A stretch of 20,000 nucleotides of DNA from an uncultured virus (IMG/VR IMGVR_UViG_3300027153_000004). Taxonomy: Duplodnaviria; Heunggongvirae; Uroviricota; Caudoviricetes. The translations under genes were made by a program, and so were the position numbers. Below, piece after piece: positions 10,503 to 17,727 of the stretch. Numbering within the stretch: the stretch's first letter is position 1; every line of letters begins with the position of its first letter. The notes beneath the pieces were generated by a model. It saw only the letters and a list, made by a program, of their open reading frames with translations. It was not told where the DNA came from and made no database searches. The stretch lies in the IMG/VR virus record IMGVR_UViG_3300027153_000004, one strand, 5' to 3'.

Positions 10503-11258
10503 ATGCCTCGTCCTGAAATTGAATTTGCTACGCCTGAAGAAGAAGAGGCTTATGCACGAAAAGCTTTAGCAAAGGCTGGCGTTCCAATTTCACAATACGA
10601 AGCCATTCGTGAGCATAAATCAAAAGGCGGTACAGCCGGTCCTGGCATCTACACCAAAGAGATGCTTGGCGTTAGGCGATGGATGGTGCAGGAGCTTCTT
10701 GCAGCAAAAATGAGCAATCGTCAGATTGCGAATGTTCTTAAACTCAGCAAAGAAACAGTTAATGGTGATCGCCATTTCAACCGCGATCTCTATACGCAAG
10801 AAATCTTGAAGAATCAAGATACGCACAGGGCGCGTCTCTTGAAAGAACAAATGGAGCTAAAAGACTTAGCTCTTCGTAGCTTTGAAAATAGTAAGCGCAA
10901 GAAAGTAGTCACCATTATGGACGGTGGTGACGATGGTAGCAAGGAGATGGTGAAGATTGAAGAAAGTGCTGGCGACGCATCGTTCCTTAACGTGGCCAAG
11001 AATTCCCTGGTGGAACAAGCAAAGTTGCTTGGCTTGAACGAAATCAAGCAAGTGGAAAACCAAGACACCTCCTATAGGAAATTCCTGAAAGATTTGTCTT
11101 CCACCATTGAAAAGGAGAAGGAAGCCAAAGCAACGGAAGAACGCCGAAGCAATTCTCTTCCTGCGTCTGCTGAGACTATTAGCTTCGATGCAGAACCAGA
11201 AAACGAGCCACTTCCTGACGCCATGCCTTTACAAACAATTAATGAAGATGACTATTGA
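10503..11258 (+). CDS. HTH protein, putative terminase small subunit
   Basis: HTH MSNRQIANVLKLSKETVNGD; helical region; AGDASFL...EQAKLLGL resembles TerS-like proteins; acidic tail. Confidence 0.55.
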   Translation: MPRPEIEFATPEEEEAYARKALAKAGVPISQYEAIREHKSKGGTAGPGIYTKEMLGVRRWMVQELLAAKMSNRQIANVLKLSKETVNGDRHFNRDLYTQEILKNQDTHRARLLKEQMELKDLALRSFENSKRKKVVTIMDGGDDGSKEMVKIEESAGDASFLNVAKNSLVEQAKLLGLNEIKQVENQDTSYRKFLKDLSSTIEKEKEAKATEERRSNSLPASAETISFDAEPENEPLPDAMPLQTINEDDY

Positions 11259-12071: not shown

Positions 12072-12491
12072 ATGGACTTTCAGCTCTCCCTTGTTGAAGA
12101 GCATTCTCTGCCTCGCATGGTTCACATTTGCATTCCTCCTCAATTGCGAGAAGAAGCACAAGCTTTAGCCATGGAGAATCCGCCCATTCATCCTGCATGG
12201 CGAAAGGCTCAACAACGTGGTAGACATTTTGTCATTGCCACCAATGAGCTAGATGACATTACGGAACTTGCCGACTTTGCTCGTACCAACATTGAAGAGC
12301 CTGAAGGGCCGATGAGCAAGCCAAAGCGACAGGCTTATCAAATCCTGCTGGATAGGGCATTCAGGCATGCTGAGCTAATGCCAGTGGGCTCTTGCCATGC
12401 CATTGCCATTAAATGGCGAGACAAGCCTTTGCCTATCACCAAAAATCTAAGCATCGCCACACAGGCTTTGCGCAAGCCACGAGCTTTGTAA
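12072..12491 (+). CDS. Hypothetical protein
   Basis: 139-aa ORF in operon. Confidence 0.7.
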   Translation: MDFQLSLVEEHSLPRMVHICIPPQLREEAQALAMENPPIHPAWRKAQQRGRHFVIATNELDDITELADFARTNIEEPEGPMSKPKRQAYQILLDRAFRHAELMPVGSCHAIAIKWRDKPLPITKNLSIATQALRKPRAL

Positions 12492-12583
12492 CGATTTATG
12501 AACGGCCCCCTTGATAGGGGGCCTTTTGCTGGCACACTATGCACATGCGACGGCGAACGTCGCTAGCCCTCTGCTTCACCATC

Positions 12584-13475: not shown

Positions 13476-13719
13476 CTTCCGAGCGCTGTGCGCCCGCATG
13501 GCTGACGAGCTGGACCATTACCGGCAGCTTTTGATGGATGACCGACGCGAAGCACATGCGTTGGCGACAGAAGCCCGCGCCGCACTTGCTCAGCCCAAGC
13601 CGCCGAGCTTGAAGGAGCAGGCGCTTGCATTGATAAGCCACGATCCTGAGAATCAACCCTTCCTAAGTGAGAAGGGTATTGCGATCATCCGCCGCGCTCT
13701 TGAATCCCTGCCTGAGTAA
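13468..13719 (+). CDS. Cyanophage-type hypothetical protein (MTDFRALCA...ARAALAQP..PSLKEQAL...IRRALESLPE)
   Basis: ATG at 13468; modular motifs recalled from picocyanophage accessory genes. Confidence 0.7.
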   Translation: MTDFRALCARMADELDHYRQLLMDDRREAHALATEARAALAQPKPPSLKEQALALISHDPENQPFLSEKGIAIIRRALESLPE

Positions 13720-13724
13720 GTACC

Positions 13725-13937
13725 ATGACCCATCAGATTGAACCTGTCGAATTCATCAAACCTGATTTTGCTTACATCTATGCCAAAGTTGCTAGGCATG
13801 TAGCAGCAGCTTATGCTGTATGCGGTTATGACGAACACGTTTTAGATAAAGAACTTCGATTGGCAATGGAAGCTATTGAATTGTTTGAAAAAGCAAGCAT
13901 GACCATTTACTCTGTTATTCCTAATCCTAAGAATTAG
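13725..13937 (+). CDS. Hypothetical protein
   Basis: 70-aa ORF, ACC-ATG start. Confidence 0.6.
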   Translation: MTHQIEPVEFIKPDFAYIYAKVARHVAAAYAVCGYDEHVLDKELRLAMEAIELFEKASMTIYSVIPNPKN

Positions 13938-13961
13938 TAGTCAACATCATTTCTCTTCCTC

Positions 13962-14204
13962 ATGACAAAACTTACACCCGCTGCAGAAGCAGTCCACAAT
14001 GCTTTTTGGTCTGGGCATGAGTATCCAGATAGTCTCAGCAATGAAGATCTTGCTGCTGCTCTTCGTGCTGCAGTTGATGAGGTGATCTCGCCTGTACCAC
14101 CACCTTGTTCAGATTCTGATGAATACCAACGAGGTTTTCTAGCCGCTCACATTAAATATCGAACGCTACTCCTTATTCTTGCCGACGAACTAGAAACCCA
14201 GTAG
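13962..14204 (+). CDS. Cyanophage-type hypothetical protein (LTPAAEAV...LAAALRAAVDEV...LADELE)
   Basis: 80-aa ORF with a recurrent phage helical motif. Confidence 0.7.
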   Translation: MTKLTPAAEAVHNAFWSGHEYPDSLSNEDLAAALRAAVDEVISPVPPPCSDSDEYQRGFLAAHIKYRTLLLILADELETQ

Positions 14205-14265
14205 TCCGATCAACTAATCATCAATTATCAGGATTTCCAATAAACGCCATTTATCAAGAATCCTG

Positions 14266-14433
14266 CTAAAGCCCCGTAAGGGGCTTTTTCTTTGCCCAAG
14301 TGGTATCGCCAGGAAGAGGTTCAGTGGCATATTCAAACGTATCGTAATCTGGCTCATTGCGAGGATCATACATTTCCCCGCTTGCCATCCATCGCTTAAG
14401 CCTTTCCCTTTCCTGCTCTGCAGAAAGCTTCAT
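14266..14433 (-). CDS. 55-aa hypothetical protein (MKLSAEQERERLKRWMASGEMYDPRNEPDYDTFEYATEPLPGDTTWAKKKPLTGL)
   Basis: Manual translation; protein-like composition; fills an otherwise empty interval. Confidence 0.6.
   Translation of the reverse strand: MKLSAEQERERLKRWMASGEMYDPRNEPDYDTFEYATEPLPGDTTWAKKKPLTGL
14268..14289 (+). terminator. Intrinsic (possibly bidirectional) terminator
   Basis: AAAGCCCC-GTAA-GGGGCTTTTT between convergent genes. Confidence 0.75.
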
Positions 14434-14519
14434 GATCGGCTGATCTTGTATTGGTCGAGTCTAGCTAGCAAGGTATGAGAGCTTGTTGCACAAGCTCCCA
14501 CTGTGCAACAGTGGCCAAG

Positions 14520-14728
14520 CAAAAGAAAAGGGGCCTTACAGCCCCTTTTCTTCACACCCTCCGATGCCCCTTTCCCTAAAGATACAAGGGAGATGATGCG
14601 CCTCGCAGGAGACCATGCAAAAACTCCTTGGCTAAGCCATACGGCTTTGCCCGCATCATCAGAGGCGTCCACCCTCACGGCTCGCCCAAAGACGAGAGCA
14701 GCAATTAAGCCGCTAGGACCGAGTGCTT
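14520..14728 (-). ncRNA. Candidate structured non-coding RNA (~210 nt)
   Basis: Extended -10 TGTTATGCT at 14733-14741, at least seven helices with G-U pairs favouring the minus strand, 3' intrinsic terminator. Confidence 0.55.
14521..14552 (-). terminator. Intrinsic terminator ending the RNA candidate (may be bidirectional)
   Basis: Perfect 12-bp inverted repeat AAGAAAAGGGGC-N6-GCCCCTTTTCTT. Confidence 0.75.
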
Positions 14729-14839
14729 CAAAAGCATAACACACCTCGTCGGCTCGGCAGCAACGATTGAATTCATGGCACAATGGGCATTGCCTTGTCG
14801 GAGACGACTTGGCCCTCGCTAGTTCTTTCGTACTATTTG

Positions 14840-15190
14840 ATGAAACGTTTCCTTTTCTCCCTCCTGCTGCTCTGCCCCTTACAAGCGCAAGCAGCAACAC
14901 TCCAATGTGGTCGCGCCTCGCACTACGGCATTGGCGACGGTTATCACGGACAACGAGCTGCTAACGGCTCTCGCTTTGACGCTTACGCCCTCACTGCTGC
15001 TCACCCCTGGCTTCCATTTGGCACAAAAGTGCTGGTAAAGAATCGCAACAATGGAAAGTCAGTGGTAGTGACAATCAATGATCGAGGCCCATACTACGGG
15101 GGCCGCATCTTGGACTTGTCCTACGGCAGCTTCTCTCGCATTGCTTCTCCTTCTCAAGGCGAAGCCTCCATCTGCATTTCAAAGCTATGA
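14840..15190 (+). CDS. rlpA: RlpA-like (double-psi beta-barrel) lytic transglycosylase with signal peptide
   Basis: [18 protein letters not shown] signal; [40 protein letters not shown]. Confidence 0.9.
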
Positions 15191-15384
15191 AAGACGCAGC
15201 TTCATTCCTGCTAGTGAGCCTGATCTTTGGGCTCGGTGCTTTTGCCATTGCAGCCTCCCCCAATGTGCTCCCTAACAAGGAAGGCCTTGACAAGTGCATG
15301 CAGCTCCACCCTGAGCGCTACTGCCGCATTGCCAACGGCTTCCCCGTGGAAAGGCTTGACAGCCCGGTTCAACTGAGCCTATAG
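15187..15384 (+). CDS. Small secreted/membrane protein
   Basis: N-terminal hydrophobic helix, Cys pair ([11 protein letters not shown]); ATGA-coupled to rlpA. Confidence 0.65.
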
Positions 15385-15424
15385 TTCCCTCGGTCGATGG
15401 GAAAGGAGCCTCGCAAGAGGCTCC
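15356..15424 (+). promoter_or_regulatory. Sigma70 promoter plus GNRA leader hairpin
   Basis: TTGACA-N18-TATAGT; GGAGCCTC-GCAA-GAGGCTCC at 15405-15424. Confidence 0.65.
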
Positions 15425-15462
15425 CCCTTTCTTCCTCGTTCCTTCGCTGGCGACAGCTCCTC

Positions 15463-15741
15463 ATGGACAAAACCAACAAGATCAAACAATTCATTTTCAA
15501 TGCTGGTCACAGCATTGTTTCAGTGGAATTCATCAAGGCTGATGGCTCCATTCGCAAGCTTTGCTTTAATCCTTGGGACACCAAGGAAATCAAGGGCACT
15601 GGCACGGCAGTAAAGAAGCCCAACATTGTCCGCTGTCGTGATTTCTCCATTGCTCGTAAAGAAGGAGAAGGTGCTTGGCGTTCGTTTGATTGCGAGCGCG
15701 TGGTCAGCATCAAAGCCAACGGTCAAACCCTCGTCTTCTGA
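15463..15741 (+). CDS. WYL_2-like SH3 beta-barrel protein
   Basis: VSVEFIKADGSIRKL...GAWRSFDCERV (F-x-K-x-D-G-x-x-R ... W-R-S-F signature). Confidence 0.75.
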   Translation: MDKTNKIKQFIFNAGHSIVSVEFIKADGSIRKLCFNPWDTKEIKGTGTAVKKPNIVRCRDFSIARKEGEGAWRSFDCERVVSIKANGQTLVF

Positions 15742-15951: not shown

Positions 15952-16142
15952 TGGGGACGCAAGACAATAGGCGAGCAGTATTTGCTTTGGCCGCAAAATA
16001 TGACTTTGTCCTTCATCGCGAAAAAAGACATTATGTTTTCAAACATCCTTCCGGTAAAATATTTTGCACAAGTAAAAGTACTTTAGACAAGCGTTTTCTA
16101 AGAAACGTTGAAAGCTTTATTAAGCGAGTCTTGTCTTCGTAA
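15951..16142 (+). CDS. HicA-like (dsRBD-fold) small protein
   Basis: helix-FVLHREKRHYVFKHPSGKIFCTSKS-helix; TAATG coupling. Confidence 0.55.
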   Translation: MGTQDNRRAVFALAAKYDFVLHREKRHYVFKHPSGKIFCTSKSTLDKRFLRNVESFIKRVLSS

Positions 16143-16209
16143 CGGTTTGTGACAAAGGGGCCTCGTGGCCCCTTTCTTCTGTATTGTTCCCTTGTTCGCG
16201 CTTCAAACC

Positions 16210-16568: not shown

Positions 16569-16778
16569 ATGCCTTTTCCCATTGGCACCCTCGTTGATCT
16601 CTACGATTTTGGCTTCAAGCAATGGCGAGGAGAATACACCGTCGTAAAGATCACGGAGACTGGCCTGCATAAAATCAAAAACACAAAAACCAATAGCCAG
16701 CAGTTTGTCAAGGAAAAAGCTCTACGCATGGGCAGGCTCGCCCCGTTTCGCATTGAGAGCCTTTATGACGGTTTGTAA
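16569..16778 (+). CDS. Small SH3/KOW-like hypothetical protein
   Basis: FPIGTLVDL...YTVVKI...KIKN...QFVKEKAL beta pattern. Confidence 0.65.
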   Translation: MPFPIGTLVDLYDFGFKQWRGEYTVVKITETGLHKIKNTKTNSQQFVKEKALRMGRLAPFRIESLYDGL

Positions 16779-16856
16779 CAGGCCTCGATAGAGGCCCTGC
16801 CATGCCGTATAGTTCTTCTCACAGGCGGAGACGCCTCCTCTAACCAACCATCCACC

Positions 16857-17243: not shown

Positions 17244-17350
17244 CCTTTGTAACGAAATATCAACGCCAGCAGCGGGGCCGTAAGGCCCTGCTTTGCCATG
17301 CTGTATAGTTCTCTCATGAGCGGCGACGCTCCTCGTTTAAGGAACCAACC

Positions 17351-17641
17351 ATGACCTCCTATTCCATCCTCTGCACCAACTCCAGCAATGGCGGTCAGTG
17401 CGAGCTTCTCATTGATGCTGCTTCTCCCGAGCAGGCTCAGCAGCACGTTGCAGATTCCCGCCCCTCCTACATCATCAAAACCATTGAGCCTGTAGAGCGT
17501 AAGTTCGTCTGCTATGGCTTCTGCCGTAGAAATCAGCGCAACGACGCTCTTGGCTATATCACTTTTTCTGCTGAGCAAGCACGTTCCATTTGCCAGCAGC
17601 TCCACCCTGACTTCGCCATTGATCGCGTTGAGCTTGCGTGA
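17351..17641 (+). CDS. Hypothetical protein with two tandem copies of a small domain
   Basis: AASPEQAQQHVADSRPSYIIKTIE versus TFSAEQARSICQQLHPDFAIDRVE. Confidence 0.75.
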   Translation: MTSYSILCTNSSNGGQCELLIDAASPEQAQQHVADSRPSYIIKTIEPVERKFVCYGFCRRNQRNDALGYITFSAEQARSICQQLHPDFAIDRVELA

Positions 17642-17727
17642 AGCTTTGTAACGACGGGGCCGATCACGGCCCCTTTCGGACTATTGTTCTCTCATGAAGC
17701 GCGAGCTTCCCTCGATTTTTTAAAACC

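Follow-up and report, generated by a model that had tools for sequence, protein, structure and literature searches.

Orphan classes of bacterial and phage non-coding RNA (ncRNA) with complex folds include raiA, OLE, ROOL, GOLLD and HEARO. RNA classes of a size similar to the one described here and with well-supported folds are rare, and past cases have been ribozymes, riboswitches or parts of RNA-protein machines. The present analysis concerns an RNA gene on the minus strand of a 20,000-nucleotide (nt) stretch of DNA (hereafter the window) from an uncultured virus of the Caudoviricetes (IMG/VR record IMGVR_UViG_3300027153_000004), where a primary transcript of ~207 nt is predicted at 14521..14727. 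This interval is an independent gene for a ncRNA, with its own promoter and terminator, and belongs to a family of 115 distinct core sequences of 155-197 nt found in viral and metagenome contigs. It shares with the five classes named above a stand-alone gene, extensive covariation, multi-helix junctions, GNRA-type tertiary elements and carriage by phages, and as with them the function is unreadable from the sequence. Unlike them it has no matching Rfam model, a smaller core, a distribution within one family of cyanophages and, in every case, a host-type -10 element.

A model that read the interval from its letters alone (the sequence-only reading) had described it as a stand-alone phage ncRNA of a family that it could not name, and this description holds: the gene has its own promoter and terminator, covariation is very strong and Rfam has no counterpart. 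With Rfam 15 (4,227 models) at gathering thresholds, 0 matches were obtained in the whole window, so that the novelty of the RNA is not removed by the database check that had been proposed for it. At E-values up to 10 the region 14350-14900 gave terminator look-alikes only (ctRNA_p42d, 25.1 bits versus 50; Bp1_162, 25.8 bits versus 50). The fold is branched, unlike 6S RNA (RF00013), which is a long irregular duplex with a central bubble and which likewise gave no match. As regards retron msr-msd RNA, no reverse transcriptase was identified among the 32 window open reading frames (ORFs) compared with PHROGs or the 10 compared with Pfam, the flanking genes being rlpA and small ORFs. Literature searches on Synechococcus phage S-CBS4 (the one isolate with the RNA), on non-coding or structured RNA of cyanophages and cyanosiphoviruses, and on rlpA-linked RNA motifs turned up nothing on this RNA. 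It is new, in that no described RNA family matches it and it is unannotated in S-CBS4. A catalogue published in 2023 (PMC10690425), which lists 8,495 candidate structured RNAs of IMG/VR without names, shares its data source and its kind of evidence (covariation in phage contigs) with the present analysis, and the motif may be among its entries; passages of its main text name no such motif, and parts of its supplement lack six contig numbers of the family.

The RNA gene and its conserved fold

The gene has an extended -10 promoter element, TGTTATGCT (TGn followed by TATGCT), which is read from the sequence on the minus strand at 14733..14741, where it had been placed by the sequence-only reading. 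A TAnnnT box lies 4-7 nt before the start of the covariance-model match in 115 of 115 distinct members, 109 of which also have TG one base upstream of it, and the columns T16, A17 and T21 of the -10 box do not vary in the MAFFT alignment (A1). As judged from this box, transcription is predicted to start near 14727/14726; the predicted end of the transcript is set by the U tract (to 14521) of an intrinsic terminator hairpin of 14 pairs with a GUAA loop (14522..14553, minus strand), identified from sequence and fold. The terminator, which had also been recognized from the window alone, sits directly 3' of helix P1. Its equivalents pass a strict automatic test in 99 of the 115 members, and inspection of the remaining 16 reveals the hairpin with its T run there too; a generic promoter and terminator scan passed over it because the T run lies within the long stem. 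The plus strand of the hairpin likewise ends in a T run, and it may stop transcription in both directions. Promoter, RNA and terminator are kept in all subclades, and the conserved unit is therefore the three together. A scan of the whole window for tRNA and tmRNA genes found none.

Between the promoter region and the terminator hairpin lies a structured core, a 177-nt stretch (14728-14552) matched by the covariance model at 192.5 bits (14552..14728, minus strand). The model (R1), built on the trimmed core, has 188 positions, 54 pairs and 5 branch points, and describes a three-way junction of P1, a 5' domain and a 3' domain with eleven helices in total. Comparison of homologs, suggested earlier as a check, revealed compensatory changes in 42-44 of the 54 pairs and no codon-type conservation. 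Standard pairs make up 97.2% of pair cells in the viral set (88 matches, 65 distinct rows) versus 79.5% in shuffles, 42 of the 54 pairs have changed on both sides and 0 of 500 shuffles reach any of five measures; as a control, sliding the 3' partner by 1-3 columns lowers pairing to 40-55%. The metagenome set (80 matches, 64 distinct rows) gives 97.1% versus 71.9% in shuffles and 44 of 54 pairs double-changed, helix P2 being uninformative there as it was fixed by the search pattern. An earlier 63-row alignment, which included one chance match, gave 97.4% and 37 of 54 pairs. Alignments fitted to a model favour the structure of that model; RNAalifold on a MAFFT alignment of 44 sequences is free of this bias and agrees, with 50 pairs of which 31 show compensatory changes on both sides. 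A separate scan for extra covarying columns (pseudoknots) listed 418 pairs, 33 of them known, and was dropped as far too permissive because the sequences are related.

All helices lie on the minus strand. P1 joins the 5' and 3' ends of the core with 6 bp, the strand GCACUC (14721-14726) pairing with GGGUGU (14554-14559); 100% of its cells are paired and 5 of its 6 pairs have double-sided changes. In the 5' domain (14667..14719), P2 (14716-14719 with 14667-14670) encloses three hairpins. The first of these, P2a (14709-14714 with 14697-14702, loop CUUAAUUG), pairs GCGGC with GCUGC and has its loop swapped for GAAA in some lineages. P2b, the hairpin CUCGUC-UUUG-GGCGAG (14691-14696 with 14681-14686), carries UNCG or GNRA caps in the family. 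P2c is a 2-bp stem with a GNRA tetraloop, CC-GUGA-GG (14673-14680), whose loop occurs as GUGA, GUAA, GCGA or GCAA in the alignments. The 3' domain (14566..14666) is based on P3 (14662-14666 with 14566-14570), all 5 pairs of which have changes on both sides, and on P4 (14652-14660 with 14592-14600), which pairs GAUGAUGCG with CGCAUCAUC and encloses P4a (GGC-A-AAGCC-GUAU-GGCUU-A-GCC, 14630-14651) and P4b (AGGAG with CUCCU, 14624-14628 with 14607-14611, conserved GCAUGG in the loop). A variable hairpin, P5 (UCCCU with AGGGA, 14573-14591), completes it. From P3 to P1 runs the joining strand AUCGGA (14560..14565), whose columns are unvarying in both alignments and which is retained even in the divergent members L218, L219 and L352. 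Self-complementary words are present in the P2a loop (UUAA) and the P4b loop (CAUG), with GAAA or CUAGUCAUU instead in some lineages.

Much of this architecture had been drawn correctly from the single sequence. P2b, P4a and P4b are supported by covariation, P4 has 8 of its 9 pairs changed on both sides, and P5 is supported more weakly, with 79% of cells paired. Three other pairings proposed at that time did not survive comparison. The supposed closing helix of CCUCUGAUG with CAUCGGAGG is paired in 69.2% of cells versus 68.9% in shuffles (192 of 500 shuffles reach it) and shows no covariation, and the idea of two competing conformers, which depended on this alternative or closing pairing, has no comparative support as the pairing is not conserved. 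Pairing of CACUC with an internal GGGUG and of GCGG with CCGU reaches 85.2% versus 84.5% in shuffles, and its middle pair is broken in 46 of 65 rows; CACUC pairs instead with the 3'-terminal GGGUG in P1, and CCGU is part of the GNRA hairpin P2c.

The RNA strand is the minus strand, fixed by G-U pairs together with the promoter and terminator, and the earlier argument from G-U pairs is borne out both by the majority pair types and by the fold energy of the minus strand. Over 65 rows UG is the commonest type at pairs 7-258 (55 rows) and 41-55 (56 rows), and GU at pairs 18-33 (52 rows) and 3-262 (30 rows). For the 209-nt interval including the terminator, the minus strand folds at -96.3 kcal/mol (z-score -4.70) and the plus strand at -75.1 kcal/mol (z-score -5.34), a difference of 21 kcal/mol in favour of the minus-strand fold. 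It might be argued that a protein-coding stretch or a DNA element is conserved here rather than an RNA, given that two ORFs run across the interval in the window (14430..14900, minus strand, 156 aa; 14503..14739, plus strand, 78 aa). Neither of these is conserved. At most 9 of 47 distinct sequences have any given reading frame open across the core, and with indels in all three length classes the core lengths modulo 3 are spread as 17, 18 and 12. Neither a DNA element nor a protein can account for one-strand G-U pairs and double changes in 42-44 of 54 pairs. The core gave no coding signal, in keeping with the earlier remark that the ORFs are not protein-like, and a non-RNA reading, of negligible probability, is already refuted by the comparative data.

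Relatives and distribution

Relatives were collected through the neighbouring genes, IMG/VR searches with the RlpA-like protein and with the protein of the small ORF giving 80 and 34 loci respectively. When the intergenic region was compared with these loci by blastn, 45 distinct versions emerged, of which one is truncated at a contig end, and the compensatory changes are obvious in the MAFFT alignment of the other 44. R1 matches 62 of 88 sources at 118-201 bits, an extra chance match of 12 bits having been dropped. A first degenerate pattern, taken from the alignment, located 62 IMG/VR stretches, 16 of them on additional contigs, and R1 matches 16 of these 16; a second pattern located 54 stretches, 8 of them on additional contigs. 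These 8 contigs and two contigs of metagenome-assembled genomes (MAGs) make up subclade 2, whose 10 loci are more divergent (74-89 bits) than those of subclade 1, to which the window belongs. A third pattern gave 101 stretches in JGI and other metagenome contigs, and R1 matches 80 of the 80 that were retrieved at 53.6-200.7 bits; since part of these contigs duplicate the DNA of IMG/VR contigs, the two sets are not independent. The most divergent member is locus L352 (601-1020, 53.6 bits), in which the 3' domain has been rebuilt.

The window corresponds, in reverse, to the first 19,932 bases of an IMG/VR virus record of 50,165 bases. The nearest isolate to it is S-CBS4, a siphovirus of the estuarine Synechococcus strain CB0101, with a primase-helicase 66.9% and an RlpA-like protein 75.3% identical to those of the window. 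R1 matches its genome at 138.2 bits (64540-64728, minus strand) in an unannotated gap of 416 bases between gp092, the homolog of the small ORF, and gp093 ('lipoprotein precursor'); the genome record is blank at this region. The annotated genes of the window include a primase-helicase, a Sak-like annealing protein, an exonuclease, a dCTP deaminase and a thymidylate synthase, and there is also a long run of small plus-strand ORFs without assigned function. Picocyanobacteria are major primary producers, and their siphoviruses have been poorly studied.

In the collections searched, the RNA family is confined to S-CBS4-like siphoviruses of picocyanobacteria from fresh water and estuaries. A blastn search in distant mode with 14400-14900 against 50,697 phage records gave no match, though S-CBS4 carries the RNA, and plain sequence search is therefore too weak here. 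A strict pattern run over 185,579 prokaryote species, with one genome each, had 0 matches. R1 likewise had 0 matches in 90 genomes from the order of one 'Synechococcales' MAG and in 151 across its phylum, which perhaps do not cover the host lineage. The sole genome matches are two short MAG contigs adjoining rlpA. The position of the RNA with respect to contig ends varies, and no link to a genome terminus was found.

Six short contigs with a phage-type rlpA (L180-L183, L218 and L219) are binned as Crocinitomicaceae, Aquiluna and Bacteroidetes, and two of them carry the RNA. They are probably mis-binned cyanophage DNA.

Neighbouring genes and mode of action

The explanation that is favoured here, with middling confidence, is that the RNA is stable, acts in trans and serves as a protein-binding scaffold or decoy. 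Host polymerase would make the RNA from the host-type extended -10 promoter; the strong intrinsic terminator ends the predicted transcript after ~207 nt, of which the first ~175 nt fold into the conserved three-way junction. The product would be stable and would work in trans through its fold rather than by long base pairing. A host or phage protein would be bound at a surface made up of the conserved unpaired AUCGGA, the UCGG next to P1, the loops of P2a and P4b and the GNRA loop; the adjoining small ORF would be a candidate partner, the sole one suggested by the data. With eleven covarying helices, a GNRA loop, tetraloop caps and a loop that is swapped for GAAA in some lineages, the function is probably carried by tertiary structure. 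Such a pattern of helices and tetraloops is typical of RNAs that act in this manner.

Upstream of the RNA gene and divergent from it lies an rlpA-like gene (14840..15190, plus strand), whose product has a DPBB_1 lytic transglycosylase domain and a signal peptide. The divergent arrangement, already pointed out from the window, recurs in 70 of 71 metagenome loci with enough flank, in 10 of 10 subclade 2 loci and in 15 of 16 further IMG/VR loci, the sixteenth being cut by a contig end. L352 is the sole exception: it has no rlpA and retains the promoter, P1, the 5' domain, AUCGGA and the terminator. In the place of rlpA it has, divergent to the RNA, a homolog of the window ORF 15187..15384 (motif C..LHPER.CR..NGF.VE.LD), which normally comes next after rlpA. 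The converse also occurs, as 19 loci with an rlpA 63-67% identical, several on contigs of 83-132 kb, gave no RNA match with filters off (best 8.1 bits), and the RNA was not found beside the rlpA of S-CREM1. The link with rlpA may therefore be synteny within one phage family.

Small RNAs (sRNAs) are often encoded beside their target or regulator, and the constancy of this neighbour could point to a base-pairing sRNA in which AUCGGA, the P2a loop CUUAA and the P4b loop GCAUGG would anneal to an mRNA of the host or the phage, perhaps the rlpA mRNA, and alter its translation or stability. The gene has its own promoter and terminator as in classical sRNAs, and short invariant unpaired stretches are indeed present at those positions. 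However, eleven covarying helices and a multi-junction fold go far beyond the usual structure of such RNAs, and the GAAA tetraloop that some lineages have in place of the P2a loop speaks against a seed at this site. Conserved complementarity to the leader of the small ORF was not found, a 5-bp match found by eye being absent from the short-spacer clade, and L352 keeps the RNA without rlpA. A base-pairing sRNA is thus considered unlikely.

On the other side of the RNA, downstream of its terminator, is a conserved small ORF of 55 aa (14266..14433, minus strand) whose predicted protein has an N-terminal helix followed by YDPRNE..DYDTFEY.TEPLPGD..W. All of the subclade 1 loci compared (47 of 47 distinct loci, then 16 of 16 more) have it on the strand of the RNA, 45-150 nt after the terminator. 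Of the 10 loci of subclade 2, 8 have its homolog (67% identical to that of the window over 24 residues, E 4e-12) on the opposite strand, and the search of the other 2 gave no homolog. The 80 metagenome loci divide into 37 with the small ORF on the RNA strand, 23 with it on the other strand, 14 in which it was not found and 6 with too little flank. In L219 the RNA terminator is followed by the terminator of a convergent homolog. TAnnnT boxes occur between terminator and small ORF in both spacer types, and the small ORF may have a promoter of its own. Since the small ORF is inverted or absent in other subclades, the RNA is a stand-alone gene and not an obligate leader; its persistence there, and once where rlpA has been lost, bears out the stand-alone character first proposed for it.

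One locus differs in the small ORF itself. In L048, ~160-750 nt downstream of the RNA, the small ORF is interrupted, and a 196-aa ORF with an HNH-like motif (H..H..N..H) ends with the C-terminal motif of the small protein, which suggests the insertion of a homing-endonuclease gene into the small ORF.

The order of elements in subclade 1 could also be that of a cis-acting leader, a riboswitch or protein-responsive attenuator in which a ligand sensed by the core would control how much transcription passes the terminator into the small ORF. The size of the RNA and its junction-centred conservation resemble those of large riboswitch aptamers, and like the terminator-type riboswitches (lysine, cobalamin, M-box) it has a terminator directly 3' of P1. 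It is unlike them in the lack of a conserved same-strand downstream gene, of a conserved alternative pairing and of an Rfam match. In 10 of 10 subclade 2 loci, and in 37 of 74 metagenome loci with enough flank, the ORF is either inverted or was not found, and the RNA of such loci keeps its promoter and terminator; what follows the RNA in L219 is the terminator of a convergent gene. P1 and the RNA terminator do not overlap, and no conserved anti-terminator was seen in a search that was not exhaustive. The only alternative pairing proposed is not conserved, which removes the single support for the 'switch' function suggested earlier, and TAnnnT boxes between terminator and ORF are those of a possible separate promoter. 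With no conserved downstream gene and no conserved alternative pairing, a riboswitch is therefore disfavoured, and a leader function is improbable.

Promoter, RNA, terminator and ORF in this order is likewise the layout of type III toxin-antitoxin systems, and it is shared by subclade 1 with ToxI of ToxIN. Phage and host are in an arms race, and a ToxI-like antitoxin or anti-defence decoy with the small ORF as its partner has to be weighed, and with it a packaging RNA of the phi29 type. An antitoxin mimic and a packaging RNA had been listed by the sequence-only reading, as had a protein decoy, which may still apply. ToxIN has tandem repeats, of which Tandem Repeats Finder detected 0 in 14200-14900 at score 30, and the 55-aa, mostly coil product of the small ORF belongs to no Pfam or PADLOC family and so is not a ToxN-like nuclease; its gene, moreover, does not keep its orientation and is inverted or missing in other members. 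In the absence of repeats and of a nuclease partner, a type III antitoxin is therefore disfavoured. The phi29 pRNA (RF00044) is, like the RNA described here, a phage-encoded structured RNA of similar size with a three-way junction that acts in trans (a mode that is inferred in the present case). No covariance-model match to pRNA was obtained, however, and the carriers are S-CBS4-like siphoviruses with a primase-helicase, not phi29-like phages. With respect to the loop-loop complementarity of pRNA, the self-complementary UUAA and CAUG are not kept in all lineages. An antitoxin or packaging role is highly improbable.

As to expression, 24 listed runs contain part of 14200-15200 and 18 of them are recorded as RNA. 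Contigs of four river metatranscriptomes (X1-X4) were placed on 13500-15700. On the core, X3 has a contig at 14559-14685 with depth 166 and X4 one at 14559-14669 with depth 843, versus depths of 2-5.5 for contigs over the small ORF, rlpA and other neighbours in all four runs, with the limit that assembled contigs cannot show strand, ends or level and that such stacks may be copies of few molecules. These contigs support an abundant RNA species covering the core. Both high-depth contigs, from different studies, run into adapter at 14559, the first base of the P1 3' strand and directly after AUCGGA; the read directions at the adapter junction are contradictory between the two libraries and no strand was drawn from them.

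This shared end would fit a ribozyme or self-processing RNA cut after AUCGGA, with the junction (AUCGGA, UCGG and the docking GNRA loop) as its active site, and the complex fold and invariant junction nucleotides are in keeping with it. Against this, no match to the self-cleaving families of Rfam (hammerhead, twister, pistol, hatchet, HDV-like) was obtained at E-values up to 10, and a cut at 14559 would detach the P1 3' strand from the remaining RNA. The end at 14559 is also explicable by priming at the only accessible single strand or by copies of few molecules. A CUGAUGA in the window, considered as a ribozyme motif, was rejected, as it lies within the covarying helix P4 and is not conserved. 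A ribozyme is accordingly viewed as very improbable.

For a stable protein-binding RNA acting in trans, the favoured explanation, a number of points weigh on the other side. The limits of the contigs just described are among them, and the common end at 14559 could reflect processing or cleavage, a priming hotspot or copies of few molecules; in X1 and X2 the small ORF and rlpA are covered by contigs and the RNA is not, which proves nothing. The folding z-score, another check proposed at the outset, is -4.70 with the terminator included and modest for the core without it (-2.44 on the minus strand and a similar -2.65 on the plus strand), and the case therefore rests on covariation and not on folding energy. 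The near-constant link with rlpA may be plain synteny or a regulatory link that falls outside this explanation, and the order promoter-RNA-terminator-ORF of subclade 1 resembles both a leader and an operon of the type III toxin-antitoxin kind. As to the protein bound, the data suggest a single candidate, the product of the small ORF. It has no family in PHROGs, Pfam or PADLOC, and in the ESM Atlas only sub-threshold lookalike clusters named 'hypothetical protein' were found; the 24 clusters homologous to it are all unnamed or 'hypothetical protein'. An AlphaFold2 model of this product, of low confidence (mean predicted local distance difference test score 67), has one helix followed by coil and gives no sign of an RNA-binding fold, and according to this model the conserved motif after the helix is probably disordered.

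A broader proposal is put forward as a tentative possibility, namely that this is a complex-folded RNA class without described relative, very highly expressed in nature, which acts through its tertiary structure on a host target in the takeover of picocyanobacteria, either by cutting itself after AUCGGA or as a decoy for a ribonuclease, polymerase, defence factor or other host protein. If the RNA does bind or mimic a host factor, it would be a new route by which cyanophages take over their host. Direct tests are open with the easily cultured pair of Synechococcus sp. CB0101 and S-CBS4, with the alignment of 115 sequences and with the RNA contigs from river water.

Further features of the window

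For the product of a window ORF at 10503-11258 (plus strand, 251 aa), comparison with PHROGs gives a match under the label 'Rnase E' (E 8.8e-15). Its only Pfam matches are weak helix-turn-helix ones below cut-off (GerE, HTH_38), and the label looks unreliable. Matches to the HLR1/RpaB direct-repeat motif lie on the minus strand at 12485-12502, 16136-16153, 16762-16779, 17246-17263 and 17635-17652, at five boundaries of plus-strand genes; the count, 6 matches versus 2.9 expected with 13 of 200 shuffles reaching 6, is not significant alone.

The final codons of the small ORF (minus strand) overlap with a terminator-like hairpin of the plus strand at 14268-14287, which is probably the terminator of the plus-strand gene 13962..14204 and may work bidirectionally. 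Two additional hairpins with perfect stems, CCACTGT-TGC-ACAGTGG and GAGCTTG-TGCAA-CAAGCTC, occupy 14470-14515 on the minus strand, in the stretch that separates the RNA terminator from the small ORF. They are present only in the lineage of the window and in the loci L020, L024 and L051, with ~9 nt at this place in most relatives, and may be a small inserted element.

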